The translations under genes and the position numbers were made by a program. The notes below the pieces were generated by a model. That model did not search any database, was not told the origin of the DNA, and was given only the letters and a program-made list of their open reading frames with translations. Shown here piece by piece: positions 821 to 60,221 of a stretch of DNA of 64,000 nt. Source of the DNA: an uncultured Bacilli bacterium (lineage in GTDB: Bacteria; Bacillota_I; Bacilli_A; RF39; UBA660); the NCBI GenBank assembly GCA_947629035.1, contig CANRCE010000001.1, positions 23,037 to 87,036 of the forward strand. The letters run 5' to 3'. The first letter of the stretch is position 1. Each line of letters starts with the position of its first letter.

Positions 821-1348
821 TTAATTATTTGTTAAAAAATCTAAATCAGTTAATTTATTAATTATTTTAATATAATCTAAATCTTTAGTATCAACAAAAT
901 TTAAATCTTTTGCTTTGTTTAACATCTCTAATAGTTCATCATAATAGTTTTCAAAATTATAAATTATTATTTTTTTACCATCATCCATGTTTCTTCGATT
1001 TTCTAAAATAGATAATAATTCACCTAAACTACCAATTCCTCCTGGTAAAATTAAAAATAAATCTGATTCATTATAAATTTTTTGAGTTCTATCAAAAGTA
1101 TCAACTGTTACTAATTTTTTGTCACAAAAAATATTTTCTAAACATTGTTTATAATGTTCATTTACTATTGCTATTATTTTTCGATTGTTTTCTTTAAATA
1201 TTTTATAACATACTCCCATCATTCCATTAGTGTCTGCTCCAAAGACCAAATCATTATTCTTTGATATTTTAGTACAAATATCACTAGTTAATTTAAAATA
1301 TTTTTTATCAATATTATTTTTTGAACTACAGCCTATAAATATTCTCAT
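821..1348 (-). CDS. LOG family protein (cytokinin riboside 5'-monophosphate phosphoribohydrolase-like, TIGR00730)
   Basis: 175 aa with the PGGxGxxxE signature (LPGGIGSLGELLSILE) and the overall LOG/'lysine decarboxylase-like' layout. Confidence 0.75.
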   Translation of the reverse strand: MRIFIGCSSKNNIDKKYFKLTSDICTKISKNNDLVFGADTNGMMGVCYKIFKENNRKIIAIVNEHYKQCLENIFCDKKLVTVDTFDRTQKIYNESDLFLILPGGIGSLGELLSILENRRNMDDGKKIIIYNFENYYDELLEMLNKAKDLNFVDTKDLDYIKIINKLTDLDFLTNN

Positions 1349-1428
1349 ATTTTTTTACTCCTTAATTTTTAATTTTAACATTATAAGTATAGCAAAGTTT
1401 TAAAAAAAAATAAAGTTATTAACAAAAA

Positions 1429-1455
1429 ATCATAAAACTGATTTAGTCTTATGAT
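1429..1455 (-). terminator. Rho-independent terminator hairpin (ATCATAA...TTATGAT) with an A-run on the + strand (T-run on the - strand) after the DUF2229 gene pair
   Basis: Inverted repeat seen directly; flanking A6 on the + strand gives a U-tract for - strand transcripts. Confidence 0.5.
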
Positions 1456-1465
1456 TTAATGTTTA

Positions 1466-2530
1466 TTATTTATTTTTCTTATCCAATATCATATCATAAA
1501 AAGCTTCTAATCTAGTATCGACGCCTACTTCATTATCTTGAGCATCAAAACTAAAGTAAATAATAGGCATACCGTAATCTTCACTAACTTTAGCCAAGAT
1601 GGGCATAGCATTTATTTCAGGAGTACAGCCAAAACTTTTTATATGAATAATTCCATCATAACCCTCTTGAGCAAGTTGATAAGATAACACTACACTTTCT
1701 GTTGCATCTGCTCCAAGATGATACTTTAAATATTTTTTGCCTTTTTTTAAAAGATGTGGTAGTTTAAATTTTTTTACAATTAATAAATAAGTAAGTGTTG
1801 TAAATCTTTTAACTTCAATTCCCATATTTGCTAGTTTCGTTTCAATATTATAGGAACAAAATGGTTCCATAATTGAATAAAGTTCTCCTACTATAGCAAC
1901 TTTAAGGTGATTTTTTGGCTTATTTATCTTACAGTTGTTATATTTCTTTTTATATTTAAAATAAATTTTAATAAGTTTAATAAATCCAATTTTACCTTTT
2001 ATTTCTTCAAAAAACTCATTTTGAATTTTTTTGAAGCTACCTTTTTCTACTTCAAATCCCATATTTTCTCTTATATTTTTACCTAGGCTATCCATTATTA
2101 TTATCATCGTAATGGTATTTATTAAGTAATAAAAGTATTTAAAAATATTTAATTTTTTATTAATTTTTTTTGCATATTTATAAATATTTATAATAGAAAC
2201 ATGATTATCTTTTATAAAATTTACAAATTCAAAATCATAACCTAAATTTCTTAAAATTTCTTCTTGAAGTTCAGCATAATATCCATAACGGCATCCTCCA
2301 CCAGCTTGTAAAATGACATTTGCTCCCATATTTAAGCTTTCAATGAAATTTCCTAAATTATATTTGAAAGGAACACATACAAAATCAGGAGAATATTTAC
2401 TTCCTATTTCAATTGTTTTTCTTGTTATAAAAGGGGGGATAATAACTTCACATTTTGTTATTTTTTTTATTAGATAACTTATTGGAATATAGTAATCTCC
2501 CATATGGGGAAAAGTAATTTTTTTATTCAT
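1466..2530 (-). CDS. 2-hydroxyacyl-CoA dehydratase-like / CoA-activase-associated protein (DUF2229/HGD-D family)
   Basis: 354 aa. N-terminus ITFPHMGDYY...VCVPFKYNLGNF...QAGGGCRYGYY resembles the second member of the DUF2229 gene pairs of Firmicutes. Confidence 0.45.
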   Translation of the reverse strand: MNKKITFPHMGDYYIPISYLIKKITKCEVIIPPFITRKTIEIGSKYSPDFVCVPFKYNLGNFIESLNMGANVILQAGGGCRYGYYAELQEEILRNLGYDFEFVNFIKDNHVSIINIYKYAKKINKKLNIFKYFYYLINTITMIIIMDSLGKNIRENMGFEVEKGSFKKIQNEFFEEIKGKIGFIKLIKIYFKYKKKYNNCKINKPKNHLKVAIVGELYSIMEPFCSYNIETKLANMGIEVKRFTTLTYLLIVKKFKLPHLLKKGKKYLKYHLGADATESVVLSYQLAQEGYDGIIHIKSFGCTPEINAMPILAKVSEDYGMPIIYFSFDAQDNEVGVDTRLEAFYDMILDKKNK

Positions 2531-3443
2531 TATTACACCTACTTTTAATAATGTCTAAAAAGCTTTCTAATCTTGTCTCCAATCCTGCTTCTGCTGTTGA
2601 TTCATCAATAATAATATTTGTTATTGGAATATTTTTAATTTTTCTTAATATTAATTCATTAACAAGTGAATCTGGACCACAGGGAAAAGCTGTAACAAAA
2701 ATAATTCCATCAACTGCTTCTTTATAGTATGAAATAGCGCCAATTAATTCTTTAGAATATTTCCAATATAAAGTGTTAGATAAGTCTTTAGCATAAGAAA
2801 TAGCAATTTTACGTTCAAGTCTATCTGCAAATAAAACATCTACTTCTTCATGTTTAAAGAAGTTAATTATATTTTCTCCAATATATTTATCATAAATATT
2901 ATAAGGATGAGCTACAATTAAAATTTTTAAATTATTATTTCTAAGTATTTTCTTTTGACTATTCATAAGACTTACATTGTATTGTCTTTCTTTTCTTTTG
3001 GCTTTAAAATAAGATATTAATATTTTAAATATATTTTTATTAACTTTAAATCCTATTTTTAAAAAGGCAAAAAATTCATTATACCATTTTGTAAATTCTA
3101 AATTATAATCTAAAATATTGGCTAAAGGGAAAGTATTTTTTACAACATCATAAATACCATTAAATTTTACACATACTTTATCTTTTTTTCCATAGTCTGC
3201 TACTCTGGGAATTAATATATAATCGCATTTATCAATAAGGCTGTAAACATGTCCCATATATATTTTTGAAGCAAGGCAAGATTCATCAATTGAATACTTT
3301 TTACCGATTTCAACAATATCTTTATTAGTTTCAGGACTTAATATAATATTACAACCTAGCATTTCAAAAAAATTTTTCCATAATATATTATAACGATAAT
3401 ATAAAAATGCTCTAGGAATTCCAATTTTTATTTTTTTTCTCAT
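2523..3443 (-). CDS. 2-hydroxyacyl-CoA dehydratase-like / CoA-activase-associated protein (DUF2229/HGD-D family)
   Basis: 306 aa. IGIPRAFLYYRY..LWKNFFEMLGC.IILSP.TNK.I...G......DESCLASK...GHV..L..KCDYILIPRV matches the characteristic DUF2229 N-terminal block. Overlaps the downstream paralog by 8 nt. Confidence 0.5.
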   Translation of the reverse strand: MRKKIKIGIPRAFLYYRYNILWKNFFEMLGCNIILSPETNKDIVEIGKKYSIDESCLASKIYMGHVYSLIDKCDYILIPRVADYGKKDKVCVKFNGIYDVVKNTFPLANILDYNLEFTKWYNEFFAFLKIGFKVNKNIFKILISYFKAKRKERQYNVSLMNSQKKILRNNNLKILIVAHPYNIYDKYIGENIINFFKHEEVDVLFADRLERKIAISYAKDLSNTLYWKYSKELIGAISYYKEAVDGIIFVTAFPCGPDSLVNELILRKIKNIPITNIIIDESTAEAGLETRLESFLDIIKSRCNNE

Positions 3444-3486
3444 TGTATCACCTAGAAAAATATATGCTTGTACTAAAAAAAAAGAA

Positions 3487-3924
3487 CTAGTTTTCTAATT
3501 CTTCATCATCGACAATTGTCAAATCAGCATAGTCATCATCATCAAAATCATCATCTGTAATGGTATCATAATCATCAATATTATCTTCAAGTTCTTCTTC
3601 TTCAAAATCTTCTTCTAGTTCTTCTTCCTCTTCATCATTACTTTCTTCATAAATATCATCCATCTCAATTTTTACTGCATGATTAGCTTTCAAATCCCAA
3701 TTTCCATTTTCTAATAAAATAAAGTCTTTTGATGTCGTAAGTGATTGAAAAAAGTCTGCGATTTTTTCTTGATATTCATTATCACTTAAGCCTAGCAAGT
3801 TACATACTTCTTTAAACAAAGAAGATGTATTCATTGTTGTTTTATTTTCTTCTAAATACATTTGGGCAATCTTCGTATAAGATAAAAGTTCAAGTTCTTC
3901 TTTAGGTATTTTATTTAATTTCAT
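3487..3924 (-). CDS. rpoE: DNA-directed RNA polymerase delta subunit
   Basis: 145 aa. N-terminal HARE-HTH-like domain (ELLSYTKIAQMYLEE...) followed by a long poly-acidic D/E tail, the typical Firmicute RpoE architecture. Confidence 0.8.
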   Translation of the reverse strand: MKLNKIPKEELELLSYTKIAQMYLEENKTTMNTSSLFKEVCNLLGLSDNEYQEKIADFFQSLTTSKDFILLENGNWDLKANHAVKIEMDDIYEESNDEEEEELEEDFEEEELEDNIDDYDTITDDDFDDDDYADLTIVDDEELEN

Positions 3925-3934
3925 ATTTTTCCTC

Positions 3935-5554
3935 CTACATTTCCTCTCTAGGAATTATTCCTATTAAATTCAAAGCATTATTTATAACAATCTTAATTGC
4001 CGTTAAAAGTGCAATTTTGTCTTTAGTATATTCAACATCATCAGTAATTATTTTAACATTAGCATAATAAGAATGAAATAGACTAGCAAGTTCATAAACG
4101 TAATTAGCAATCAAATGTGGTAATCCCTTTTCTCCAGCCACTTTAACCACATCCTCAAAGGCACATAGTTTATTCAAAATAATATATGTATTAGCATCAC
4201 AAATAGTGCTATATTTTAAATTATCTAAATCTCCCTTATAGCTTTTTAAAATAGAAGATATTCTAGCATTAGCATATTCAATATAGTAAATAGGATTATC
4301 ATTAGATTGACTTGTAGCTAAATCTAGGTCAAAATCCATTTGTGTATCAATACTATGAGCAACAAAGAAAAATCTTGCAGCATTTATACCAACATCATCA
4401 ATTAATTCCATTAACGTATAAGTTTTTCCTGTTCTTTTGCTAAGCTTTAACTCTTGATTATCTTTAATTAATCTAACCATCTGAAGTATTTTTACCTCTA
4501 ACTTATTAGTATCATAACCTAACATAGATAAAGAACCTTTCAATCTATTAATATATCCATGATGATCAGCTCCAAATACATCAATCATTTTATCAAAGCC
4601 TCTTTCATATTTATCAATATGATACGCAATATCGGGCATAAGATAAGTATAGTTACCATCATTTTTAATAAGTACTCTATCTTTCTCATCACCATACGCC
4701 GTAGTTTTTAACCATAAAGCTCCATCTTCAATATAGCAATTACCACTGTTTTTTAATTTGGTTAATGTATTATCAACAATTCCTCGATCATATAATGATT
4801 GTTCACTCGTAAAAACTTCATAATTAACTCTAAAAGTATCCAAATCGTGTTTAATTTGATCTAATAATATATCCAATCCTTCTTTTTTAAAAAATGAAAT
4901 ATCACAATCAAGTTTATTATCTTTATAATAAGAATAAATTTTTTTAGCTATTTCAATTATTTCTTTACCATGATAACCATCTTCAGGTAAATTACAATCT
5001 AATCCACATAACTCTTTATATCTTTCTTTTATAGATATACCAAGATTATTCATTTGATTACCAGCATCATTAATGTAATATTCTCTGACTACATCATAAC
5101 CAATAAAATTTAAAATTCGTGCTAGGCTATCACCATAAACAGCTCCTCTACCATGGCCTATATGTAAAATACCAGTTGGATTAGCACTTACAAATTCTAA
5201 ATTTATTTTTTTATTTTTCCCAATGTCGCATCGACCATAATCATTTTTCATCATTAAGATTTTATCTAATGTCTTTAATAAATAACTAGGACTTATAGTA
5301 AAATTAATGAAACCTGGCATAGCAACCTCAACATTACAAACAACGTCACTATCAATATTATCTTTAATTAAATTAGCAATTTCCATTGGACTTTTGTGTA
5401 AATTTTTAGCCATAACTAAAGCAATATTACTAGCATAATCACCATGATTTTTATCTTTACATATATCAATAGTAATTTCACTTTCTAAAAAGTTTATATC
5501 CAATTTAACTAAACTACATTTTATGATATGTCTTAACTCATCTTTTATACTCAT
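3935..5554 (-). CDS. argS: Arginyl-tRNA synthetase
   Basis: 539 aa. Class I HIGH motif (SANPTGILHIGHGRGAVYGD), ArgRS length and C-terminal anticodon-binding end ...IIPREEM. Confidence 0.95.
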   Translation of the reverse strand: MSIKDELRHIIKCSLVKLDINFLESEITIDICKDKNHGDYASNIALVMAKNLHKSPMEIANLIKDNIDSDVVCNVEVAMPGFINFTISPSYLLKTLDKILMMKNDYGRCDIGKNKKINLEFVSANPTGILHIGHGRGAVYGDSLARILNFIGYDVVREYYINDAGNQMNNLGISIKERYKELCGLDCNLPEDGYHGKEIIEIAKKIYSYYKDNKLDCDISFFKKEGLDILLDQIKHDLDTFRVNYEVFTSEQSLYDRGIVDNTLTKLKNSGNCYIEDGALWLKTTAYGDEKDRVLIKNDGNYTYLMPDIAYHIDKYERGFDKMIDVFGADHHGYINRLKGSLSMLGYDTNKLEVKILQMVRLIKDNQELKLSKRTGKTYTLMELIDDVGINAARFFFVAHSIDTQMDFDLDLATSQSNDNPIYYIEYANARISSILKSYKGDLDNLKYSTICDANTYIILNKLCAFEDVVKVAGEKGLPHLIANYVYELASLFHSYYANVKIITDDVEYTKDKIALLTAIKIVINNALNLIGIIPREEM

Positions 5555-5946
5555 AAATAATCACTCATTTCTATTTTGTATTCATATATATTATCAGTTT
5601 CCTTAACCATATATACAATTTCAATTAAATTATCTTTCTTTATTAAAGATATTGTTTTTATATTAAGCTCTAAATTAACACCATTTTCTTTTAACAAATA
5701 TTGCGTTATTGTATCTTTATTTTCTTTAAAAATCAAAATATTTTTAAACTCTTTGTTTTCTCTTATTAATATAATTTCATCATCATTTAGATGAATTGTA
5801 TTTTTTATATCATCTTCTTTATAAGTAATCTTATTTTTTTCTTTTATAGCAATGGTATCAATATCAAAGCATTCTCTTTCTTCATTATTTTTTAAATATC
5901 CTTTTATCCTTATTTTTATTTTAAAAACCTCCCAACATAATTTCAT
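5551..5946 (-). CDS. DUF1934 (YwiB-like) protein, co-operonic with argS
   Basis: 131 aa, overlaps the argS start by 4 nt. Conserved ywiB-argS gene order in Bacilli/Clostridia. Confidence 0.55.
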   Translation of the reverse strand: MKLCWEVFKIKIRIKGYLKNNEERECFDIDTIAIKEKNKITYKEDDIKNTIHLNDDEIILIRENKEFKNILIFKENKDTITQYLLKENGVNLELNIKTISLIKKDNLIEIVYMVKETDNIYEYKIEMSDYL

Positions 5947-39649: not shown

Positions 39650-39988
39650 ATGAAAAAAGAGAGAATAATTAGAAAGGGTCTTGAATTTACAGATATTATA
39701 AATAATGGTAAATATGTAAGTAATGCTTTTTATTCAATTTATTATATAAACAAAAAAGAAACTCTTAATAGATTTGGTATTTCTGTTCCTAAAAAAATCG
39801 GACATGCCGTAGTAAGAAATAAAATTAAGAGACAATTAAAAAGTATTATTAATAGCGATAAAAATAGTATACAAAACGACTTTGATTATGTTATAATAGT
39901 TAGGAAAGGTTTATTAGATTTAAATTATTTTGATCGTCAACAAAATTTTTTTAAACTAATGAAAAAAATAGGTGATGCTAATGAATAA
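39650..39988 (+). CDS. rnpA: Ribonuclease P protein component
   Basis: 112 aa. RL.....F..V...G..VSN.F; GISVPKKIGHAVVRNKIKRQLK RNR-motif region. Confidence 0.85.
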   Translation: MKKERIIRKGLEFTDIINNGKYVSNAFYSIYYINKKETLNRFGISVPKKIGHAVVRNKIKRQLKSIINSDKNSIQNDFDYVIIVRKGLLDLNYFDRQQNFFKLMKKIGDANE

Positions 39989-40880
39989 GAAAAAAATAGG
40001 TATATTAATGATTTGTTTATTGTTATTATCTGGTTGTACTAAAACTTTAAAAGATAGTGATAATAAGATTGTAAAAAATGAAATAACTGGTCAAAATTTA
40101 ACAGAAAATGTTGTATGTAGACCTACGAATGAAGAAGTTTTAAAATTGTATGAAGATAATAAAGTTGATTTATCTAAATTACCAGAATGTGAAGATTTTA
40201 CTCCAATTACTACTTATGAAAGTATTTGGACAAGTTTCTTTGTAAAACCATTAGCTTGGGTAATTATTAAAATTGGTAATTTGGTTAATAGTTATGGCTT
40301 ATCTATAATTATTACTTGCTTACTTATTAGGTTAGCTTTATTTCCTGTTACTAAAAAAACAGCAATACAATCGGAAAATATGCAAAAAGCTCAACCTGAA
40401 CTTCAAAGATTAGAAAAGAAATATGCTAATAAGACTTCTCAAGAAGATCAAACTAAAAAAGCTCAAGAAATGATGATGATTTATCAAAAGTATCATATTA
40501 ATCCTATTTCTGGTTGTTTACTAGCTTTTGTACAAATTCCTTTATTATTTGCTTTTTTAGAAGCAATCAATAGAACACCTGCGATATTTGAAAATAAGTT
40601 CTTATCTCTTCATATGGGAACAACAATAACAGTTGGTATTTCAAATGGTAACTGGTGGTATTTACTTTTATTAGTTTTGATAATGGCTACGACTTATATT
40701 TCGTTTAGAAAGACTTTAAAAGATCAATCAGCTGCTGCTCAACAGATGAAATTTACAATTTATTTTATGCTTGTAATTATTTTAATTGCTTCATTTAGTT
40801 TACCTGTTGCTTTAGGTATTTATTGGATAACATCTAGTTTGTTTACAATATTACAAAATTTATGGGTTGAAAGAAGGTAA
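39981..40880 (+). CDS. yidC: YidC/Oxa1-family membrane protein insertase (lipoprotein type, SpoIIIJ/YqjG-like)
   Basis: Lipobox LLLLSGC; 60-kDa-IMP conserved core. Possible starts are GTG 39972, ATG 39975 and ATG 39981; overlaps the rnpA stop. Confidence 0.85.
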   Translation: MNKKKIGILMICLLLLSGCTKTLKDSDNKIVKNEITGQNLTENVVCRPTNEEVLKLYEDNKVDLSKLPECEDFTPITTYESIWTSFFVKPLAWVIIKIGNLVNSYGLSIIITCLLIRLALFPVTKKTAIQSENMQKAQPELQRLEKKYANKTSQEDQTKKAQEMMMIYQKYHINPISGCLLAFVQIPLLFAFLEAINRTPAIFENKFLSLHMGTTITVGISNGNWWYLLLLVLIMATTYISFRKTLKDQSAAAQQMKFTIYFMLVIILIASFSLPVALGIYWITSSLFTILQNLWVERR

Positions 40881-41493
40881 TATGATGAAGAAAAATTATT
40901 ATGAGGCTAAAAGTTTAGATGATGCTAAAAGTAAAGCTTTAGAGGAACTTAATTTAAATGAAGAAGATGTTATTATAAACATTGTCGAAGAAAAAAATTC
41001 TTTGTTAAAGAAAAATGTAAAAATTGAAGTTATAACTATTAATGATATTATTAATTATTTAAAAGAAGTTATTAATGATATTATGAAACTTATGGGTGTA
41101 GAAGTTAATCTTGAAGTAAGAAGAAGAGATAATAATATTTCTATAAAGCTTTTTTCTAATAATAATGCTATCTTAATTGGTAAAAATGGAAGAACTATAT
41201 CAGCATTACAGTTATTATTAAGACAGATGGTTAATAATCAAACCAAAAATCATGTTTCAATTGTTTTAGATGTAGAAAATTATAAAGAAAAAAAGATGAA
41301 AAATATCGAATATTTAGCTAAAAAAATTGCTAGGGAAGTTGCTAAAAGTAAAGTAGAGGTAAAATTAGATAGTATGAATTCTTATGAAAGAAGAATTGTT
41401 CATAGCATACTTTCTGATAATAAATATGTCTATACAGAGAGTGTAGGGGAAGAGCCTAATCGTTGTGTGGTAATAAAACCAAAAGAAGATTAA
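40867..41493 (+). CDS. jag: Jag/KhpB RNA-binding protein (KH + R3H domains)
   Basis: 208 aa. R3H motif (MNSYERRIVHSILSD). Follows yidC as in the conserved rnpA-yidC-jag unit. Confidence 0.8.
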   Translation: MKEGNMMKKNYYEAKSLDDAKSKALEELNLNEEDVIINIVEEKNSLLKKNVKIEVITINDIINYLKEVINDIMKLMGVEVNLEVRRRDNNISIKLFSNNNAILIGKNGRTISALQLLLRQMVNNQTKNHVSIVLDVENYKEKKMKNIEYLAKKIAREVAKSKVEVKLDSMNSYERRIVHSILSDNKYVYTESVGEEPNRCVVIKPKED

Positions 41494-48833: not shown

Positions 48834-50378
48834 TTATTTTTCAATTTTTATAATTATTTGATATTCTTTTTCTAAATCCATTTCATTTATAGTTATCGTT
48901 TTGCCACTATTTTCTATTTTAGATACAACCTCACGAATTGATGATATAGCATCATTTAAGTTATTATTTGACTGACCATTACTGATTGGTTCAACTGGTG
49001 GTTGCAATTCTGGTGACACTACTGGTGTAGGTTCAATATTTATTGCTGATAATGGCTCTTCTTTAGGTGATGGCATTGTTGGTGCTTGTGGCGTGATTGG
49101 ATTTGTAATATCAATTATTGTAGGTTCTTGTGTGTTTGTTGACATGTTTGGCATGCTGTTATTTTGTGCCATTATAGGTGGTGTCATTGTTGGTTCAATA
49201 TTATTAGATTGTGATGAAAAACTTGGAATTGGACTTGGAACTACTGGCTCAACTGGGATATTTGGCAGTACTATTTGAGCATTAGGTATTGGTCCTTGTT
49301 GAGTTGGTGTTTGACTAGCTCCAATTGGTTCAGGCATCACAGGCATTTGAATTGTATTTACATTTGGTTGGGGTGTTGACTGTGGCATAGGATTTTGTAA
49401 TGAAGCTTCATTATTTTGATTCATTCCTGGTGCTTGTGGTACTGTAAAATTCATATTTACTGTTTCATTTTCAAGTGGCTTATTAAAATTTGAAGCCTCA
49501 CTTGGTTGTGCTACTGGTTGATTTACCATATTATTTTGTTCTTGATTCATATCTATTATCTCCTCTTTTCTATCTTCAATTAAAGGTTCAACATCATTAA
49601 AGACATTTGAATTTGTATCATATATATTTAAATCATTTAAAGCAAATTTTACGTTATTATTTATTGAATTATTAGTTAATGAAATAGCTTCATTTAAATC
49701 ATTTAGATTAACTGTATTATTATTTGTTCCTTCAAGTGGATCTATTATTGTTTCTTGATTACTATCTTGATTTTGTTTTAACAAAGACTTAATATAGTCT
49801 TCAGTTGCTTTTACATTTAATTTTTGAGATATTATTTTATTTAATACTTCTTTTTGTTTATTTTCATCAGATAGTTGCAATAAGCTTCTTGCATGTCGTT
49901 CTGATATTTCATTATTCATTAGTGAATCCTGAATTTCTTTAGGTAATTTTAATAATCTTAATTTGTTGGCAATACTACTTTGTGATTTGCCTATTTTTTG
50001 TGATAAATCTTCCTGTTTTAAATTTCCTAAATTCATTAAATTTTGATATGCCCTAGCTTCTTCGATAGCATTTAAATCTTTTCGTTCGAGATTTTCTATT
50101 AATGCTAATGAAGCACTAGTAATATCATCTACTTCATTTACTATTACTGGTACTTCTTTTAATCCTGCAATAATAGCAGCTTTATATCTTCTTTCTCCTG
50201 CAATGATTTCATATTTATCATTAATTTTTCTAACGGCTAGTGGTTGAATTATTCCATAATTTTTTATCGAAGTAGCTAATTCATTTAATTCTTCTTCATT
50301 AAATATCATCCTTGGTTGATATCTATTTGGTATTATGTTTTCAATTTTTATATATTCAATTTGCTTTGCCGTATTCAT
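48834..50378 (-). CDS. ParB/Noc-like DNA-binding protein with long P/Q/N-rich low-complexity C-terminal extension
   Basis: 514 aa. ParB N-domain (IIPNRYQPRMIFNEEELNEL..SIKNYGIIQPLAVRK...YEIIAGERRYKAA) and HTH (LSQKIGKSQSSIANKLRLLKLP), then ~250 aa of P/Q/N/T-rich sequence and a ~50-aa C-terminal segment. No parA/soj gene in the window. Confidence 0.75.
   Translation of the reverse strand: MNTAKQIEYIKIENIIPNRYQPRMIFNEEELNELATSIKNYGIIQPLAVRKINDKYEIIAGERRYKAAIIAGLKEVPVIVNEVDDITSASLALIENLERKDLNAIEEARAYQNLMNLGNLKQEDLSQKIGKSQSSIANKLRLLKLPKEIQDSLMNNEISERHARSLLQLSDENKQKEVLNKIISQKLNVKATEDYIKSLLKQNQDSNQETIIDPLEGTNNNTVNLNDLNEAISLTNNSINNNVKFALNDLNIYDTNSNVFNDVEPLIEDRKEEIIDMNQEQNNMVNQPVAQPSEASNFNKPLENETVNMNFTVPQAPGMNQNNEASLQNPMPQSTPQPNVNTIQMPVMPEPIGASQTPTQQGPIPNAQIVLPNIPVEPVVPSPIPSFSSQSNNIEPTMTPPIMAQNNSMPNMSTNTQEPTIIDITNPITPQAPTMPSPKEEPLSAINIEPTPVVSPELQPPVEPISNGQSNNNLNDAISSIREVVSKIENSGKTITINEMDLEKEYQIIIKIEK
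48986..49736 (-). repeat. Low-complexity (P/Q/N/T-rich) coding region within the ParB-like gene
   Basis: Compositionally biased translation (...PQAPGMNQNNEASLQNPMPQSTPQPNVNTIQMPVMPEP...). Confidence 0.6.
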
Positions 50379-51169: not shown

Positions 51170-53024
51170 TATAATACTTCCTTAAATATATTAATAATAT
51201 TGATATGTCTGCTGGATTTACACCACTTATTCTTAAAGCTTGAGCTATATTAAGAGGTCTTATTTTTTTTAATTTATCTCTTGCTTCGCTTGCTAAATTG
51301 GGAATTTTATCATAATCTATATCATTAGGTATTTGCTTTTCTTCATTTTTTAACATTTTTTGGGCTTCTCTTTCTACTTTAGTTATATAACCTGAATATT
51401 TTATTTGAATTTCTACTTCTTCGATTATATCATCAGTATATTTTAATTGTAGTTGATATTTATCTATTAAATTTTTTAAATTAATATTTGGATTTTTCAA
51501 ATATTCATATACTGAAATTCCAATTCGTTTTTTTTCACTATCTACAGTTATTTTGGTATTTTTTAACTCTGTAATTAATTTTTTTATATTTTCTTTTTTA
51601 ATTTGAAATTTTTGATATTGTTGTTCGTTTATTAATCCAACTTTATAACCATATTCTCTTAGTCTTAAATCAGCATTATCGTGGCGTAGTAAAAGACGAT
51701 ATTCTGCTCTAGAAGTTAGCATTCGATATGGCTCATTTGTTCCTTTGGTTACTAAATCATCAATTAATACACCAATGTAGGCTTCATTTCTTTTTAAAAT
51801 TAAAGGTTCTTTATTTTCTAAAGCCAAAGCTGCATTAATTCCTGCGATTAATCCTTGACATGCTGCCTCTTCATAGCCACTTGTTCCATTTATTTGACCT
51901 GCTGTATATAGATTTTTTATTATTTTATTTTCTAAAGTTGGCTTCATTTGTGTAGGATATATAGCATCATATTCAATGGCATAGGCATATTTTAATATTT
52001 TAGCATTTTCTAATCCTGGTAATGAATGTACCATTTTTTCTTGAATATTTTTAGGCATACTTGTTGAAAATCCTTGTAAATAAATATCATCATAGTATTT
52101 ACTTTCTGGTTCTAAAAATAATTGATGTTTTGGTTTATCAGAAAATCTAACAATTTTATCTTCGATAGATGGACAATATCTTGGTCCTACACCAGTTATA
52201 TCATTAAGTCCTCCATACATGCTTGATTTATTTAAATTATCTAAAATTATTTTTTTGGTTTCATCGGTCGTATATATTAGATAACATGGTTGTTGATTAT
52301 TTAGATCATAAGTGGCCTCTTCATCATGGGAAAAAGTATAATATTTGTTATCTCCATCTTCACGTTTTGCTTTACTAAAGTCTATAGTATCTCTTTTTAT
52401 TCTTGGTGGAGTACCTGTTTTTAATCTTAATATGTCAAGACCATATTTTTTTAAATTATCACTTAAATGAAGTGATGGTTTTTCATTATGTGGGCCACTT
52501 CTAGTACGAGTAGAACCTACTAAAATATCAGATTTTAGGTATGTTCCAGTAGTTAAAATTACAATATTACTAGTTATTTTTGTAAAATCATCTAAAATAA
52601 CACCTTTTACTTCTTTGTTTTCAACGATTAAATCTTCGACCATTGCTTCTTTTATTTCTAAATTTTTTTGATTCATTAATATTTCTTGCATAAATTTTGG
52701 ATAAGTTATCTTATCAGCTTGTGCTCTTAAAGATCTTACTGCTGGACCACTTGAACTGTTTAACATTTTCATCTGAAGTAAAGTAGCATCAGCAGCTTTT
52801 CCCATTTGACCTCCTAGAGCATCAATTTCTCTTACAATTATTCCTTTAGCAGATCCTCCAATTGAGGGATTGCATGGCATTGTTGCAATATTTGAAATTG
52901 ATGATGTTATTAGTAATGTTTTATGATTTTTTCTAGCTGAAGCTAGGGCTGCTTCACATCCTGCATGTCCTGCTCCAACGACAATTACTTCGTATTTATC
53001 TTTCACATTTATCACCTTTGTCAC
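51162..53024 (-). CDS. mnmG: tRNA uridine 5-carboxymethylaminomethyl modification enzyme MnmG (GidA)
   Basis: 620 aa. FAD-binding VIVVGAGHAGCEAALASAR. Confidence 0.95.
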   Translation of the reverse strand: MTKVINVKDKYEVIVVGAGHAGCEAALASARKNHKTLLITSSISNIATMPCNPSIGGSAKGIIVREIDALGGQMGKAADATLLQMKMLNSSSGPAVRSLRAQADKITYPKFMQEILMNQKNLEIKEAMVEDLIVENKEVKGVILDDFTKITSNIVILTTGTYLKSDILVGSTRTRSGPHNEKPSLHLSDNLKKYGLDILRLKTGTPPRIKRDTIDFSKAKREDGDNKYYTFSHDEEATYDLNNQQPCYLIYTTDETKKIILDNLNKSSMYGGLNDITGVGPRYCPSIEDKIVRFSDKPKHQLFLEPESKYYDDIYLQGFSTSMPKNIQEKMVHSLPGLENAKILKYAYAIEYDAIYPTQMKPTLENKIIKNLYTAGQINGTSGYEEAACQGLIAGINAALALENKEPLILKRNEAYIGVLIDDLVTKGTNEPYRMLTSRAEYRLLLRHDNADLRLREYGYKVGLINEQQYQKFQIKKENIKKLITELKNTKITVDSEKKRIGISVYEYLKNPNINLKNLIDKYQLQLKYTDDIIEEVEIQIKYSGYITKVEREAQKMLKNEEKQIPNDIDYDKIPNLASEARDKLKKIRPLNIAQALRISGVNPADISILLIYLRKYYNE

Positions 53025-53281
53025 TTTTTTTGAGTTACTGTTTTTTCATTTATAGCTTTATGTAATTCTAATTTTTTTTTGGCACTTTCGTTCATAAACT
53101 CTTCCTTGTATGGCATTTTGTTTATTTGAGTTAATATTATCATATAATAACTACTATCATCTTCGATATAACCAGCTTCATGATATGCAATATCCCAAGA
53201 ACCATATTTTCTTACAAATGGTTTTTCTTGCAATTTTTTATCAGTTACATTTTGATAATTTGAACTCATTTTTAAATCCAT
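53021..53281 (-). CDS. Small hypothetical protein inserted between mnmE and mnmG
   Basis: 86 aa. 10-nt gap after mnmE and a 4-nt overlap with the mnmG start, so an operon position. No motif recognised. Confidence 0.4.
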   Translation of the reverse strand: MDLKMSSNYQNVTDKKLQEKPFVRKYGSWDIAYHEAGYIEDDSSYYMIILTQINKMPYKEEFMNESAKKKLELHKAINEKTVTQKK

Positions 53282-54647: not shown

Positions 54648-54684
54648 TCCTTTCTTTTTTTATATTTTAGCATAGTTCAAGAAA

Positions 54685-54708
54685 AAAAACTACAAAAAAG
54701 TAGTTTTT
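54685..54708 (-). terminator. Hairpin (AAAAACTAC-a6-GTAGTTTTT) immediately downstream of the rpmH stop
   Basis: Perfect 9-bp stem seen directly. T-rich on both arms, so it can terminate in either direction. Confidence 0.5.
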
Positions 54709-54710
54709 AA

Positions 54711-54833
54711 TTAAGCTGATAATTTTTTTCGACCTTTAGCTCTTCTTTTATTTAAAACATTTCCTTTTATTCTAGAGAAAAAGCCATGTTTCTTTGCTTT
54801 TTTTCTTTTATTTGGTTGATAAGTCCTTTTCAT
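54711..54833 (-). CDS. rpmH: 50S ribosomal protein L34
   Basis: Hand-translated 40-aa [43 protein letters not shown], a canonical L34. Too short for the supplied ORF track. Confidence 0.9.
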
Positions 54834-54932
54834 TTCTAACACCTCCAAAGTTAAATGCTCTTATATTATATAAGGTAATTTTTATAATGTCAAGCTTTTT
54901 TTAAAATTTAGCTATCTTTTTTTCTTATTTTT

Positions 54933-54941
54933 TGTTATAAT
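54933..54941 (+). promoter_or_regulatory. Extended -10 element (TGTTATAAT) upstream of the HerA-like ATPase gene
   Basis: TGnTATAAT at 54933-54941, with RBS AGGAAGGGA at 54951-54959 and ATG at 54966. Confidence 0.4.
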
Positions 54942-54965
54942 GATATAGAATAGGAAGGGATTTTT

Positions 54966-56726
54966 ATGTTCAAAGAAATACTTGCAATTAGTAAAAATTT
55001 TGCTTTAGTTAAAATTGAGGGTCAGATTAATGATGATCTTTTGAATTATAATGTTGTATTTGAAGAAGATAATAAAAAAATATTAGGAGAAATTGAAGAG
55101 ATTAATGATGGACAAGCTCGTATTACGTTTTTAGGAGAATTTCATGATGGAAAATATTATGATGGTATTATTCGAAAACCTAGCTTAAATGCCAAAATTA
55201 GAATTATTAACGAAGATGAACTTAAAGAATTAGTAGGAGCTAATGATAATCGAAGTATGATTTTAGGATTATCACCATTATATAATGATTTTCCTATTCA
55301 TATAAATATTAATGAAATGTTTAGTAATCATAGTGCTATTTTTGGTAACACTGGTAGTGGTAAAACTTACGGTGTAGCACGTTTTGTTCAAAATTTATTT
55401 CATATTGATGATAAAATTCCTTTTAATAGCAATATATTTATATTCAATAATACAGATGAATATGACAATGCTTTTAATAATTTAAATACGATTAATCCTA
55501 ATTTTAATTATAAAATCTTTACTACTAATACTAATCAAACAACGATACCAATTATAAAGTTACCTCTATGGCTTTTTAGTGTTGATGATTTTGCTAATTT
55601 ATTAGATGTAACTGAATATTCTCAAATTATGGTTATTGAAAAAACATTAAGTTATGTATCTTTATTTGCAAGGAATGATGAAGAGTCTCATCGTTATAAA
55701 AATCATTTAATTGCTAAAGCAATAATTAATGTTATGTATACTAATCAAACATCTGCTAGAATTCGTGACCAAATATTTTCAATTTTAACTGATTGTCATA
55801 CACCAGAACTTAATTTAGATGTTGAAGTTCCAGGTGTTGGATATACTAGAGAATTTCGTAAATGTTTTGATATAGATAGTCAAGGAGAATTTGTTGAAAG
55901 AATACTTATAACTGGCTATATAGCTCAATTTGTGGATAATAATACTAAATGGAATGAAGATTATGTACCTTGTTATTTTACAATGGATGATTTAGAAGTT
56001 GCTATGAATTTTGCTTTAATTTCTGAAGGACTTTTGTTAAATGAAAAGACTTCTTCAGAAGCGACTGCTTTAAAAGTTAAACTTCATACATTAAATAATA
56101 GTTCTAGTCGAAAGTTTTTTGAATATGATCGATTTATTAATATAAATGAATTTATTTCTGATTTAATATTAATAAATGGTAATAAAAGAGCACAGATTAT
56201 TAATTTTGTACTAGAAGATATCGATGATAGATTTGCTAAAAATTTAGTAAAAATATATTCTAGAATACTTTTTAAATTTTCTAAATATTTACCAGATCGA
56301 GGAGCTATGCCTATTCACATTATGTTAGAAGAAGCCCACAGATATGTTCAAAAAGATAATGATCTAAATATTTTAGGATATAATATTTTTGAAAGAATAG
56401 CTAAAGAAGGTAGAAAATTTGGACTGGTATTAGATTTAATTACTCAAAGACCTACTGAATTATCAGAAACTGTTATATCTCAATGTAGTAATTTTTTGAT
56501 TTTTAAAATAAATCATCCAACTGATTTAGAATATATAAGAAAAATGGTTCCTAATATAAGTAATGATGTTATAGAAAAACAAAAATCTCTTCAATCTGGT
56601 ACATGTGTAGCTTTTGGAAAAATGATGAAAATCCCTATGATTGTTAAAATGCAGCTTCCTGATCCTGAACCTCATAGTTCAAATGCTTCAATCTACGATA
56701 AGTGGATGATTGAGTGGAAAAAATAA
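54966..56726 (+). CDS. HerA/FtsK-superfamily ATPase (DUF87 'HerA-like helicase' domain), stand-alone
   Basis: 586 aa. N-terminal HAS-barrel-like segment (ILGEIEEINDGQARITFLGEF). Walker A GNTGSGKTYGV. Walker B/DEAH-like IHIMLEEAHRYV. Conserved LITQRPTELSETVISQCSNFLIFKINHP block typical of HerA-type ATPases. No TM segments. Confidence 0.65.
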   Translation: MFKEILAISKNFALVKIEGQINDDLLNYNVVFEEDNKKILGEIEEINDGQARITFLGEFHDGKYYDGIIRKPSLNAKIRIINEDELKELVGANDNRSMILGLSPLYNDFPIHININEMFSNHSAIFGNTGSGKTYGVARFVQNLFHIDDKIPFNSNIFIFNNTDEYDNAFNNLNTINPNFNYKIFTTNTNQTTIPIIKLPLWLFSVDDFANLLDVTEYSQIMVIEKTLSYVSLFARNDEESHRYKNHLIAKAIINVMYTNQTSARIRDQIFSILTDCHTPELNLDVEVPGVGYTREFRKCFDIDSQGEFVERILITGYIAQFVDNNTKWNEDYVPCYFTMDDLEVAMNFALISEGLLLNEKTSSEATALKVKLHTLNNSSSRKFFEYDRFININEFISDLILINGNKRAQIINFVLEDIDDRFAKNLVKIYSRILFKFSKYLPDRGAMPIHIMLEEAHRYVQKDNDLNILGYNIFERIAKEGRKFGLVLDLITQRPTELSETVISQCSNFLIFKINHPTDLEYIRKMVPNISNDVIEKQKSLQSGTCVAFGKMMKIPMIVKMQLPDPEPHSSNASIYDKWMIEWKK

Positions 56727-56784
56727 AATTATAATGTAAGGTATTTCAATGCTTTACATTTTTTTTACACAAATTCAACAGTCC

Positions 56785-56895
56785 TGTGGATAAAATTTGT
56801 CAACTATGTGGATTAAAAATTTTATTATAAATTTGTGGAAAACAAAAAAAATCCTTTTAAAATAATAACTTTTATTGTTGAAAACTTGTTGATAA
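56785..56895. promoter_or_regulatory. DnaA-box cluster upstream of dnaA (oriC / dnaA promoter region)
   Basis: TGTGGATAA (56785-56793) is the perfect reverse complement of TTATCCACA. TGTGGATTA (56807-56815), TGTGGAAAA (56834-56842) and TGTTGATAA (56887-56895) each carry one mismatch. All four are in the same orientation. Confidence 0.75.
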
Positions 56896-56987
56896 ATTGT
56901 TGATATCATTGTTTAAAGAAAAAAAATGCTAGACAAATACTTTTTTTGCGTTATAATAAAGTTATGAAGTTTAGGAGGCGATAGGAA

Positions 56988-58346
56988 TTGGATACATCTG
57001 TGATTTGGAATAATTTTCTTGAGAAGATAAAAGATAGACTTTCGCCTTTATCTTATGATTTGTGGTTTAAGGAAACATATTTATATAGTATGGATAATAG
57101 TACTGTAACTATTATTGTTCCATCAAAATTACATATTACTCATTTGGATGATAACTATAAAGATGATATTGTGGAAATATTTAGTTTATTAACAGGTAAT
57201 AACTATAATTTTGTTTTTAAATTAAAAGAAGATTTAGAACAAACTGTTGATGATAGTACTTTTTTAATTAAAGATGTTTCTAACAATATTCATCAAAATT
57301 CGATTAGTGCAAATTTAAACAGTGATTATACTTTTGAAAATTTTGTAGTAGGTGATAGTAATAAATTTGCTTTTACGGCTTCACGGGCTGTCGCTGAAAG
57401 ACCAGGAAAAGCATATAATCCTTTATTTTTATATGGAAAAAGTGGATTAGGTAAGACTCATCTTATGCAAGCTATTGGCAATTATATAATTCAAAATACT
57501 AATAAGAAAGTTTTATATATTTCAAGTGATCAATTTGTTAATGACTATATTTCGGCAGTTAGATCAAATGATGCAAATAATTTTGATAAAATTGATAGTT
57601 TTAAGCGAAAATATCGTGATATAGATGTTCTAATTATTGATGATATTCAGTTTCTAGGTAGTGCTACAAAAGGTCAAGAGGAATTTTTTCATACTTTTAA
57701 TGAATTATATAACTCAAATAAGCAAATAATTATTGCCTCTGATCGTTCTGTTGATGATTTGAAAATGTTAGAGAATCGATTGCTTACAAGATTTAATTCG
57801 GGTCTTACAGCAAATATAACACCACCTGATTTTGATTTGAGAATGAGTATTATTAGAAAAAAAATAATGTATCAAGAGTCGGCTTCGGATATTCCTGATA
57901 ATGTTATAGAATATATAGCTAATAATTTTGCTTCGGATGTAAGGCAATTATCTGGAGCAATTACTAGAGTATTTGCTTATTCATTAATGATGAATAAAGG
58001 AATTATAAATTTAGATATTGCAATTGAAGCTTTAAAAGATCAATTACATGATAAAGGAGTATATAAAAATGACATTCATAGGATTCAAAGAATCGTTTGT
58101 GATTACTTTAAAATAGAAATTGAGGATATAAAGGGTAAAAAAAGAAGTAAAAATATTAATTATCCTAGACAAATAGCTATTTATTTATGTAGAACATTAA
58201 CTACTGAATCTTTTCCTAAAATAGGAACTTATTTTGGAGGTCGTGATCATTCAACAATTATTAGTTCATATAAGAAGATATCTAATGAATTGAAAAAGAA
58301 TAATCAACTTCAAACTGTTATTGAGGAATTAAAGCAATCTATATAG
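56988..58346 (+). CDS. dnaA: Chromosomal replication initiator protein DnaA
   Basis: 452 aa. AAA+ Walker A GKSGLGKTHLMQAIGN, domain IV HTH. It appears to start with TTG (56988) 9 nt after RBS AGGAGG; no in-frame ATG is suitably placed. Confidence 0.95.
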   Translation: MDTSVIWNNFLEKIKDRLSPLSYDLWFKETYLYSMDNSTVTIIVPSKLHITHLDDNYKDDIVEIFSLLTGNNYNFVFKLKEDLEQTVDDSTFLIKDVSNNIHQNSISANLNSDYTFENFVVGDSNKFAFTASRAVAERPGKAYNPLFLYGKSGLGKTHLMQAIGNYIIQNTNKKVLYISSDQFVNDYISAVRSNDANNFDKIDSFKRKYRDIDVLIIDDIQFLGSATKGQEEFFHTFNELYNSNKQIIIASDRSVDDLKMLENRLLTRFNSGLTANITPPDFDLRMSIIRKKIMYQESASDIPDNVIEYIANNFASDVRQLSGAITRVFAYSLMMNKGIINLDIAIEALKDQLHDKGVYKNDIHRIQRIVCDYFKIEIEDIKGKKRSKNINYPRQIAIYLCRTLTTESFPKIGTYFGGRDHSTIISSYKKISNELKKNNQLQTVIEELKQSI

Positions 58347-58381: not shown

Positions 58382-58476
58382 TTATACACAAGTAATTGTG
58401 AAAAAAAAATCTTTATTTTATAAGAATTTATTTTACTTTTCCACAGTATGAACAGTGTAATAATAATAAATATTAA
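58382..58476. promoter_or_regulatory. dnaA-dnaN intergenic origin segment: DnaA boxes plus AT-rich unwinding element
   Basis: TTATACACA (58382-58390) and TTTTCCACA (58437-58445) are one-mismatch DnaA boxes. They are followed by the AT-run AATAATAATAAATATTAAAAG immediately before dnaN. Confidence 0.6.
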
Positions 58477-59780: not shown

Positions 59781-60221
59781 ATGAAAAGTAATTATACAAT
59801 TAATGAGAATACTTATCTTATTTCACAAGAAGGACGTAAGAGATCAAAAACAAAAATAATTGAAGAAGAAGCAACTTTTTTTGTTAACAAGCAGTGTTTG
59901 GAAGTAATTGATGATAGTTGTACAAATTATGGTAGTAGTTTTATAGGACAAAAAGAAAATACTAAAAAATTATTGAATATAAATATAAAACCACCTATTG
60001 TTGTTGATAAAGTTAATACCTTAATTTTTTTTCCAACAGCAAGTCCTAAATCAACAGAATGTATATGGATATCATATAATAATTTAAAATCATATAAAAA
60101 GATGAATAAGATAACTCGTTTGACATTTAAAAATAATAAAATGTTTGATATTCCAGTTACTTATGAAATAATAGATAATCAAGTTACTAGATCAATAAAA
60201 TTAGAAAAAAAATGTCAATAA
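59781..60221 (+). CDS. comK: ComK-family competence transcription factor
   Basis: 146 aa. FFVNKQCLEVIDDSCTNYGSSFIGQKENT...IKPPIVVDKVNTLIFFPTASPKSTECIWISYNNL...ITRLTFKNNKMFDIPVTYEIIDNQVTRSIKL aligns block by block with B. subtilis ComK (CVFYVNMKPLQIVDRSCRFFGSSYAGRK...HKPPIMVDPSNQIFLFPTLSSTRPQCGWISH...TEVTFSNGKTMELPISYNSFENQVYRTAWL). Confidence 0.7.
   Translation: MKSNYTINENTYLISQEGRKRSKTKIIEEEATFFVNKQCLEVIDDSCTNYGSSFIGQKENTKKLLNINIKPPIVVDKVNTLIFFPTASPKSTECIWISYNNLKSYKKMNKITRLTFKNNKMFDIPVTYEIIDNQVTRSIKLEKKCQ

Follow-up and report, generated by a model that had tools for sequence, protein, structure and literature searches.

The herA locus beside oriC

The 64,000-nucleotide stretch of DNA from an uncultured Bacilli bacterium that was analyzed here (hereafter the window) carries, between rpmH and dnaA, an uninterrupted open reading frame (ORF) of 586 codons with an ATG start, at 54966-56726 on the plus strand. 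Its product is a genuine, intact, stand-alone HerA-family P-loop ATPase, and the gene is referred to below as herA. Bacterial HerA ATPases are now mostly read as parts of two-gene immune systems; the effector that HerA binds and activates is, for example, SIR2 or DUF4297, or the NurA nuclease in repair. The HerA motor described here stands without an effector, is fixed in a whole lineage and lies in housekeeping operons, and the orphan family to which it belongs, vertically inherited in uncultured gut Bacilli, appears from sequence comparison to branch from the SIR2-HerA anti-phage group. The elements of the locus, in window coordinates, are as follows.

54711..54833, minus strand: rpmH (ribosomal protein L34, 40 aa), divergent from herA; ORF, with a Pfam Ribosomal_L34 match on the identical gene in two related loci (L001/L002)
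54865..54893, minus strand: rpmH promoter-like site, TTGACA-17-TATAAT, sigma-70-type, 12/12 matches; by consensus match only
54933..54941, plus strand: putative herA promoter, extended -10 TGtTATAAT; read from the sequence
54952-54959, plus strand: putative herA ribosome-binding site, AGGAAGGG; read from the sequence
54966..56726, plus strand: orphan HerA-family ATPase, 586 aa; ORF, Pfam, PADLOC, PDB sequence matches, AlphaFold2 (AF2) and Foldseek
54966..55265, plus strand: N-terminal beta-barrel (HAS barrel), residues 1 to about 100; AF2 strands E2-E80 (pLDDT 77-91) and alignment
55344..55367, plus strand: Walker A, GNTGSGKT, residues 127-134; G127, G130, G132 and K133 invariant
55578..56165, plus strand: helical-bundle insertion in the RecA-like core, residues about 205-400; AF2 helices H206-H401
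56313..56345, plus strand: Walker B, IHIMLEEAHRY, residues 450-460; E455 and E456 invariant
56733..56767, plus strand: intrinsic-terminator-like hairpin (12 bp; 56733-56760) followed by U8; dG -11 kcal/mol
56785..56895, minus strand: DnaA-box cluster, 4 boxes with at most one mismatch, upstream half of the bipartite oriC; box scan
56930..56957, plus strand: dnaA promoter-like site, TAGACA-16-TATAAT; promoter scan
56988..58346, plus strand: dnaA, TTG start; ORF, with Pfam domains known for orthologs
58382..58445, plus strand: two DnaA boxes in the dnaA-dnaN gap, downstream half of oriC; box scan

The four DnaA boxes in the 261-bp gap between herA and dnaA start at 56785, 56807, 56834 and 56887, against a background across the window of 0.56 boxes per kb at the same tolerance of one mismatch or less. 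No box is present in the 117-bp gap between rpmH and herA, nor is there one upstream of herA in any of nine genomes (the window and 8 relatives); in the 8 relatives the herA-dnaA gap holds 2 to 12. The terminator-like hairpin lies directly 3' of the herA stop codon and has a z-score of -4.45, with 0 of 200 shuffled sequences folding equally well; a simple terminator scan had missed it because its stem is A+T-rich. With its own terminator, and with all of the DnaA boxes downstream, herA is thus a self-contained transcription unit beside the bipartite oriC and not within it. It has rpmH, mnmE and dnaA as its neighbors and is itself a neighbor of oriC, not a part of it: the boxes are found only downstream, and the origin position itself occurs in 32 of the 155 orthologous loci described below, all in one nested clade.

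The first-pass annotation, made from the letters of the window and their translations, had placed herA between rpmH and dnaA, divergent from rpmH and with DnaA boxes only on its dnaA-proximal side, and the ORF coordinates and the box scan agree with each of these points. Its further description of the gene as inserted inside the origin region holds as regards the interval between rpmH and dnaA, but not as regards the origin proper, since the DnaA-box cluster does not include herA, which lies to the rpmH side of it and has its own terminator.

Protein identity and predicted structure

The Pfam DUF87/HerA central domain (PF01935) matches the window protein at 68.2 bits (E 1.5e-18, cutoff 23.2), while FtsK_SpoIIIE (PF01580) reaches 19.7 bits, below its cutoff of 24; the protein belongs to the HerA family and not to FtsK/SpoIIIE. 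At least 10 of the PADLOC HerA models match it, the best being PDLC04102 (E 5.9e-102, 340 bits, profile positions 94-640 only), and every solved HerA group in the PDB is matched, at E 8e-40 with the single sequence and 4.6e-50 with a family profile. All of the NCBIfam HerA equivalogs also match, at about 100-150 bits against cutoffs of 800-970 (127 bits versus 800 for NF040937 and 98 versus 970 for NF040819); with scores so far under the equivalog cutoffs, the protein is not an ortholog of any named HerA.

An AF2 model built with an alignment of 22 close homologs had a pLDDT of 53 and was discarded; it was replaced by one using a 60-sequence alignment from three clades, and the resulting monomer model has a pLDDT of 86.4 and a pTM of 0.84. 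It consists of an N-terminal beta-barrel, a RecA-like core with Walker A and Walker B, and an inserted helical bundle. When it was compared with the PDB by Foldseek, the best 50 matches were all HerA chains, from SIR2-HerA, DUF4297-HerA, HerA-NurA and Sulfolobus HerA, with query-normalized TM-scores of 0.55-0.73. The same domain plan, with a helical bundle in the RecA-like core, has been described for Paenibacillus HerA (PMC11472057). Pfam, PADLOC, the PDB matches and the AF2/Foldseek comparison therefore agree with the first reading of the ORF as a 586-aa HerA-like (DUF87) ATPase with a HAS barrel, Walker A and Walker B.

Walker A is intact in 153/153 full-length orthologs, all of which also keep the EE pair of Walker B, though 17 of them read EESH rather than EEAH; the motifs being fully intact, the gene is not decaying. 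Two further motifs, ERIAKEGRK and QRP, are invariant in the alignment across both orphan and SIR2-type HerAs. As basic motifs of the inter-subunit or pore type, they are consistent with a hexameric DNA-translocating ring.

Orthologs and their gene contexts

Many homologs with 76-90% identity are found in gut metagenomes and in metagenome-assembled genomes labelled 'Bacilli bacterium', where the gene order is rpmH, divergent herA, dnaA, dnaN, comK, recF, gyrB, gyrA. In an exhaustive search of representative sequences, full-length members of the family (about 580-600 aa) were still recognized at about 30-50% identity. In the Genome Taxonomy Database (GTDB), scanned with one genome per species, at least 80 loci have an ortholog (47-78% identity), the carriers among the matches listed being uncultured gut Bacilli, 'Tenericutes', Coprobacillus sp. 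CAG:605, Ca. Onthousia and Ca. Onthocola. A metagenome scan with an alignment as query added 64 further orphan loci, and one with a single protein (P0133) gave no matches. The hosts are uncultured, low-GC, small-genome gut Bacilli, and the gene is on their chromosomes.

Marker genes were mapped on all 155 orphan loci, giving the following contexts.

ylxM then herA: 59 loci (ftsY - small membrane protein - ylxM - herA)
herA then dnaA: 32 loci, all at least 72% identical to the window protein
gatCAB ... herA ... tcdA: 27 loci
herA then an 800-aa ORF: 11 loci
yqeG-yqeH-herA: 5 loci, a clade with 42-46% identity
remaining loci of the 155: no context class, or flanks too short

Orthologs at 42-60% identity sit away from the origin, at ftsY-ylxM, gatCAB/tcdA, yqeG-yqeH and in other housekeeping settings; across all of the loci the housekeeping neighbors are rpmH, dnaA, ftsY, ylxM, ffh, gatCAB, tcdA, yqeG, yqeH, rarA and xerD. 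In the ylxM context the gap between ylxM and herA is as short as 15 bp (locus L022), and ffh follows less than 400 bp after herA in 3 loci and further downstream in many. In the clade with at least 72% identity, rpmH lies directly upstream of herA in 15 of the 32 loci, some of the others being short of upstream sequence, and in three (L010, L012 and L014) another gene has replaced it. At least one member of the clade, L009 (77% identity), has no dnaA downstream of herA; carbamate kinase and other genes follow instead.

In a neighbor-joining (NJ) tree the origin-context clade is nested inside other orphan clades, so that the position beside the origin is derived. It belongs to one subclade and is not fixed even there; the place of the gene in the genome is variable, always among housekeeping genes, and the move next to the DnaA-box cluster in the window's clade is a local rearrangement and not a defining feature of the family. 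The earlier idea that the origin position hints at the function of the gene is thus not sustained, since that position is limited to 32/155 loci in one nested clade and the distant orthologs lie elsewhere. What survives of the origin-centered interpretation is an unpartnered ATPase of the HerA type; its position as a functional clue does not. At this locus the gene is routinely present in close relatives, with no characterized function attached to it.

Several variations were seen among the orthologs. About 18-32 of them, mostly in the ylxM context, have disordered C-terminal tails of 60-430 residues rich in S, N, T and P (among them L055, L057, L059-L061, L065, L149 and L162, and also P0122 and P0123), with repeated TDTG[VI]PL[VI] peptides and acidic ends (...DDNGFDEE, ...DDEGIDFE, ...DDTGVDFA) that resemble hub-binding tips such as the SSB C-terminus; the window HerA has no such tail. 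Long orthologs (829-943 aa) were considered as possible Rosetta-stone fusions and rejected: their extra C-terminal parts are of low complexity and have no Pfam domain, and so reveal no partner enzyme. In one representative, P0129 (943 aa), both Walker motifs are degenerate (GNDGFGKS for A, IDNAH for B), which suggests that some lineages have an inactive paralog, and L040 has a tandem duplicate of the orphan herA, as adjacent ORFs of 616 and 584 aa. Between ftsY and ylxM, in the SRP-operon context, L022 (5372-5701) and 20 other loci have a hydrophobic ORF of about 100 aa, judged by eye to be probably a multi-pass membrane protein. Between rpmH and herA, L009 has a gene for a 1542-aa protein (974-5602, minus strand) that looks, by eye, FHA-like at its N-terminus and EssC-like (a type VII secretion ATPase).

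Partner genes and ancestry

A hidden Markov model (HMM) of the SIR2 partner, which recovers 18/18 outgroup loci having upstream sequence, found no match in the 64-kb window, in L001-L088 or in L109-L172, the reach of the search being 64 kb around the window gene and 5-7 kb in the 155 related loci. No recurrent nuclease, SIR2 or other effector gene occurs in those 155 loci, and no NurA, Mre11 or Rad50 lies beside herA in any locus examined. There is likewise no nuclease or DUF4297-like gene among the annotated neighbors, and the adjacent genes are identified as housekeeping, though no dedicated DUF4297 model was used. The first-pass observation that no partner gene is adjacent has thus been extended from the window to the whole set of loci and, the defining partner gene being absent, the window protein belongs to none of the SIR2-HerA, HerA-DUF4297 and HerA-NurA systems. 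Two upstream genes of the gatCAB context (c34 and c35, 265-305 aa) were tried as partners and rejected, as membrane or cell-wall-type proteins present in 4 loci each.

The closest sequence group outside the orphan family, at 25-38% identity over the full length, consists of the HerAs of SIR2-HerA (Nezha-type) systems (PADLOC PDLC04102; PDB 8wiv/8wld from Paenibacillus and 8j4u/8su9 from E. coli). They share with the orphans the plan of beta-barrel, RecA core and helical bundle, the Walker A and B motifs, and ERIAKEGRK and QRP. Bona fide members of PDLC04102 score 750-900 bits over profile positions 1-650, with a SIR2_2 gene directly upstream of each; their hosts are Actinobacteria and Proteobacteria, and integrases or conjugation genes are often found close by. 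The orphan HerAs score 245-370 bits and miss the first ~90 profile positions. Nearest of all outside the family are HerAs of gut and fermentation metagenomes, with 32-38% identity to the window protein; wherever the upstream sequence is available, a SIR2_2 gene of 374-429 aa overlaps the start of their herA. These gut SIR2-partnered HerAs form the sister group of the orphans in the NJ tree, where 100/100 bootstraps recover the orphan family as monophyletic.

The orphans differ from the SIR2-type HerAs in having no SIR2 adjacent or nearby, the upstream gene in the window being rpmH on the opposite strand, and in being slow-evolving, vertically inherited and set in housekeeping operons, as against the patchy, mobile settings of SIR2-HerA. 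In the alignment their N-terminal barrel is shortened by three deletions relative to the SIR2-partnered HerAs, and in the Paenibacillus SIR2-HerA structure it is the HerA barrel domains that hold SIR2 (PMC11472057). They also appear, judging from length and domain boundaries, to lack the C-terminal arm domain of the 696-aa Paenibacillus HerA described in the same paper.

The HerAs of HerA-DUF4297 systems (PDB 9c1m, 8xau, 8ziq) give the best PDB sequence match, the E of 4.6e-50 with the family profile, with the C-terminal PNPEP...W tail included, and a Foldseek probability of 1.0. Only residues 53-211 and 428-584 of the window protein align with them by sequence, however, and in the NJ tree the DUF4297-type HerAs are further away than the SIR2-type, as a 'far' group whose gene context was not checked. 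The HerA-NurA end-resection helicase of archaea and Deinococcus-Thermus (PDB 4d2i, 9x1m) shares the fold and, presumably, the chemistry of a hexameric translocase; like the orphan family, it represents a housekeeping rather than an immune use of HerA, though the NCBIfam scores given above set the window protein well apart from it. FtsK/SpoIIIE, of the same ASCE P-loop superfamily, is a ring-shaped pump for double-stranded DNA with a housekeeping role on the chromosome, and is judged the most plausible functional analogy. The N-terminus of the orphan HerA is nevertheless predicted by the AF2 model to be a beta-barrel, not the membrane domain of FtsK/SpoIIIE, and the window protein ends about 20 residues past the ATPase core, which apparently leaves no room for an FtsK gamma (KOPS/SRS-reading) domain. 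The searchable literature, queried for HerA together with rpmH, dnaA or the origin and for HerAs that are orphan or stand alone, yielded nothing about this family and no account of any orphan HerA in the core genome of Bacilli.

Conservation and inheritance

Over the 30 loci in which HerA, DnaA and DnaN could all be compared with the window, mean identity to the corresponding window protein is 77.6% for HerA, 70.5% for DnaA and 69.8% for DnaN; HerA is more conserved than both of the others in all 30, and its divergence is correlated with theirs, at rho 0.60 for DnaA and 0.50 for DnaN. The composition of herA is native (GC 25.5%, GC3 10%, codon-usage r = 0.92 versus its neighbors). No close plasmid homologs were found, the best plasmid matches being 31% identical or less, and there was no full-length homolog in phages. 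Conservation above that of DnaA and DnaN, intact motifs and the lack of close plasmid or phage copies together point to a vertically inherited core gene under strong purifying selection and not to a defence gene.

The only notable phage match is to the annotated large terminase subunit of Blautia phage Montmirail (ON453898.1, 9457-10107), with 28.7% identity over HerA residues 358-580, the shared ASCE motor core.

Possible roles of the orphan HerA

The reading that we favor, and consider probable, is that of a defence-derived HerA that lost SIR2 once and has been retained as a core DNA-translocating motor, serving chromosome maintenance rather than immunity; its parts concerning identity and evolution are much firmer than that concerning the cellular role. 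One ancestor would have lost SIR2 while the ATPase was kept as a core gene. The orphan protein would still be a ring-shaped, ATP-driven translocase of double-stranded DNA, as the characterized HerAs are, and would act in segregation, repair or recombination and not in immunity. In the window's clade, herA was relocated to the side of the DnaA-box cluster, upstream of dnaA, as a separate transcription unit with a terminator and a putative promoter of its own.

A number of points weigh against this. The hosts are uncultured, and the role of the family is drawn from sequence comparison and models; its status as a core gene similarly derives from conservation and synteny, and chromosome maintenance names no specific cellular process. 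In the NJ distance tree the node joining the orphans to all of the SIR2-type HerAs has only 47% support, so that, in principle, the proposed descent from a SIR2-HerA system might have run the other way, or both groups might go back to a common ancestor. A partner, whether SIR2 or a nuclease, could be encoded elsewhere in the genome, unlinked to herA. Finally, the herA-oriC-dnaA linkage has outlived rearrangements that removed rpmH in the clade with at least 72% identity, which leaves some room for a local functional link.

A bolder form of the domestication reading is put forward tentatively, as possible rather than likely: that the HerA of a SIR2-HerA system was domesticated once, in the ancestor of these reduced-genome gut Bacilli, and is now an essential chromosome-maintenance motor, which might replace or supplement a function of the FtsK/SpoIIIE, RuvB or end-resection type. 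This would explain both a constraint stronger than that on DnaA and the place of the gene in core operons. The disordered C-terminal tails of many of the orthologs, with their acidic/aromatic end peptide, might then tether the motor to a hub protein of replication, repair or division.

The relationships of the protein also suggest a solitary or remnant defence ATPase, that is, an immune sensor of the SIR2-HerA type with its effector elsewhere or lost, which still takes part in phage defence or is decaying; its closest relatives outside the family are the HerAs of SIR2-HerA operons, and its best PADLOC and PDB sequence matches are to defence HerAs. Defence genes, however, are typically patchy and fast-evolving, and this one is more conserved than DnaA and DnaN in 30/30 loci, with a vertical-type divergence that tracks that of its neighbors. 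It is set in housekeeping operons, as in L022 just after ylxM, has native codon usage, has no close plasmid or phage copies and keeps its motifs fully intact, while the barrel that docks SIR2 has been trimmed and no SIR2 is seen anywhere in the 64 kb of the window or, over a range of 5-7 kb, around the gene in the 155 related loci. The solitary defence ATPase offered in the first-pass annotation therefore seems unlikely. An accessory of the origin, placed at oriC for a role in replication initiation, origin unwinding or origin segregation, is considered quite unlikely as well. HerA is a DNA motor, its family is conserved like replication proteins, and the 32 loci with herA directly upstream of the DnaA-box cluster and dnaA have it in the same orientation as dnaA, with the linkage persisting in L010, L012 and L014, where other genes have replaced rpmH. 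Set against this are about 120 orthologous loci, at 42-60% identity, that are not near dnaA or rpmH, the nested and hence derived place of the origin-context clade, the lack of dnaA downstream in L009, the lack of DnaA boxes upstream of herA in 9/9 genomes, and the terminator that closes off herA transcription; moreover, the position of a gene need not equal the site where its product acts.

Competence genes near several of the loci raise the question of a DNA-transport motor, a pump of the HerA/FtsK superfamily for uptake or export in competence or cell-to-cell DNA transfer. In the window and throughout the origin-context clade, comK is found between dnaN and recF, 3 kb downstream of herA; L174 has comEA and comEC one gene after herA, L175 has two N_methyl pilin-like genes before it, and the NCBIfam model of the archaeal DNA-import ATPase CedD matches the protein weakly (E 1e-14). 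Such associations occur in a minority of contexts, however, and are attributed to ancestral Firmicute gene order (in Bacillus subtilis, yqeG-yqeH adjoins the comE operon), and competence genes are missing from the surroundings of most loci (those of the ylxM, gat and c22 contexts). CedD scores far less than the HerA models do, and no obvious membrane partner is present in the neighborhood, membrane anchoring of HerA itself not having been tested; a transport role is thus regarded as very unlikely. The suggestion that herA is cargo of a mobile element recently inserted at the origin, which might be prompted by its interruption of the normally non-coding rpmH-dnaA interval and by the abundance of HerA genes on plasmids, has almost nothing left to recommend it. 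GC, GC3 and codon usage are like those of the neighbors, the same arrangement is found in many species at 72-90% identity, the ORFs at 50-64 kb of the window are all housekeeping with no integrase among them, and the closest plasmid copy is 31% identical; synteny, composition and the lack of close plasmid or phage copies effectively refute it.

If the domestication reading is true, the family is a clear example of a component of immunity that became a core cellular gene, and a new candidate for an essential gene in very abundant, uncultured gut bacteria. With a PADLOC HerA match at the level of E 1e-102, annotation of the Defence-finder type would mislabel these orphans as immunity genes. A caution of method also follows, in that the oriC position loses its functional meaning once distant orthologs are examined.

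Other features of the window

The ParB protein of the window (48834-50378, minus strand) has 514 aa, with a low-complexity linker of about 300 residues, rich in Q, N, P and S, between its HTH domain and its C-terminal end; parB is flanked by rsmG and spoIIR, with no adjacent parA/soj. An 86-aa ORF with no Pfam match lies between mnmE and mnmG (53021-53281, minus strand) and is not present at that position in L003-L007. Besides spoIIR, the window carries spoIID and mreB, which fits the picture of the uncultured orders RFN20, RF39 and ML615J-28 as mixing sporulating and non-sporulating members (PMC10868615).

The rnpA, yidC and jag genes (39650-41493, plus strand) are 13 kb from rpmH and on the opposite strand, while L003 (5800-7656), L011 and L013 retain the usual order rpmH-rnpA-yidC-jag-mnmE; the displacement points to a local rearrangement to the left of the origin in the window. 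To the right of it, the gene between dnaN and recF, a position occupied by yaaA/rlbA in Bacillus subtilis, encodes a ComK-family protein (59781-60221, plus strand; Pfam ComK, E 4.6e-37). This position of comK is kept in all of the origin-context relatives, with ComK identities there of only 37-67%.

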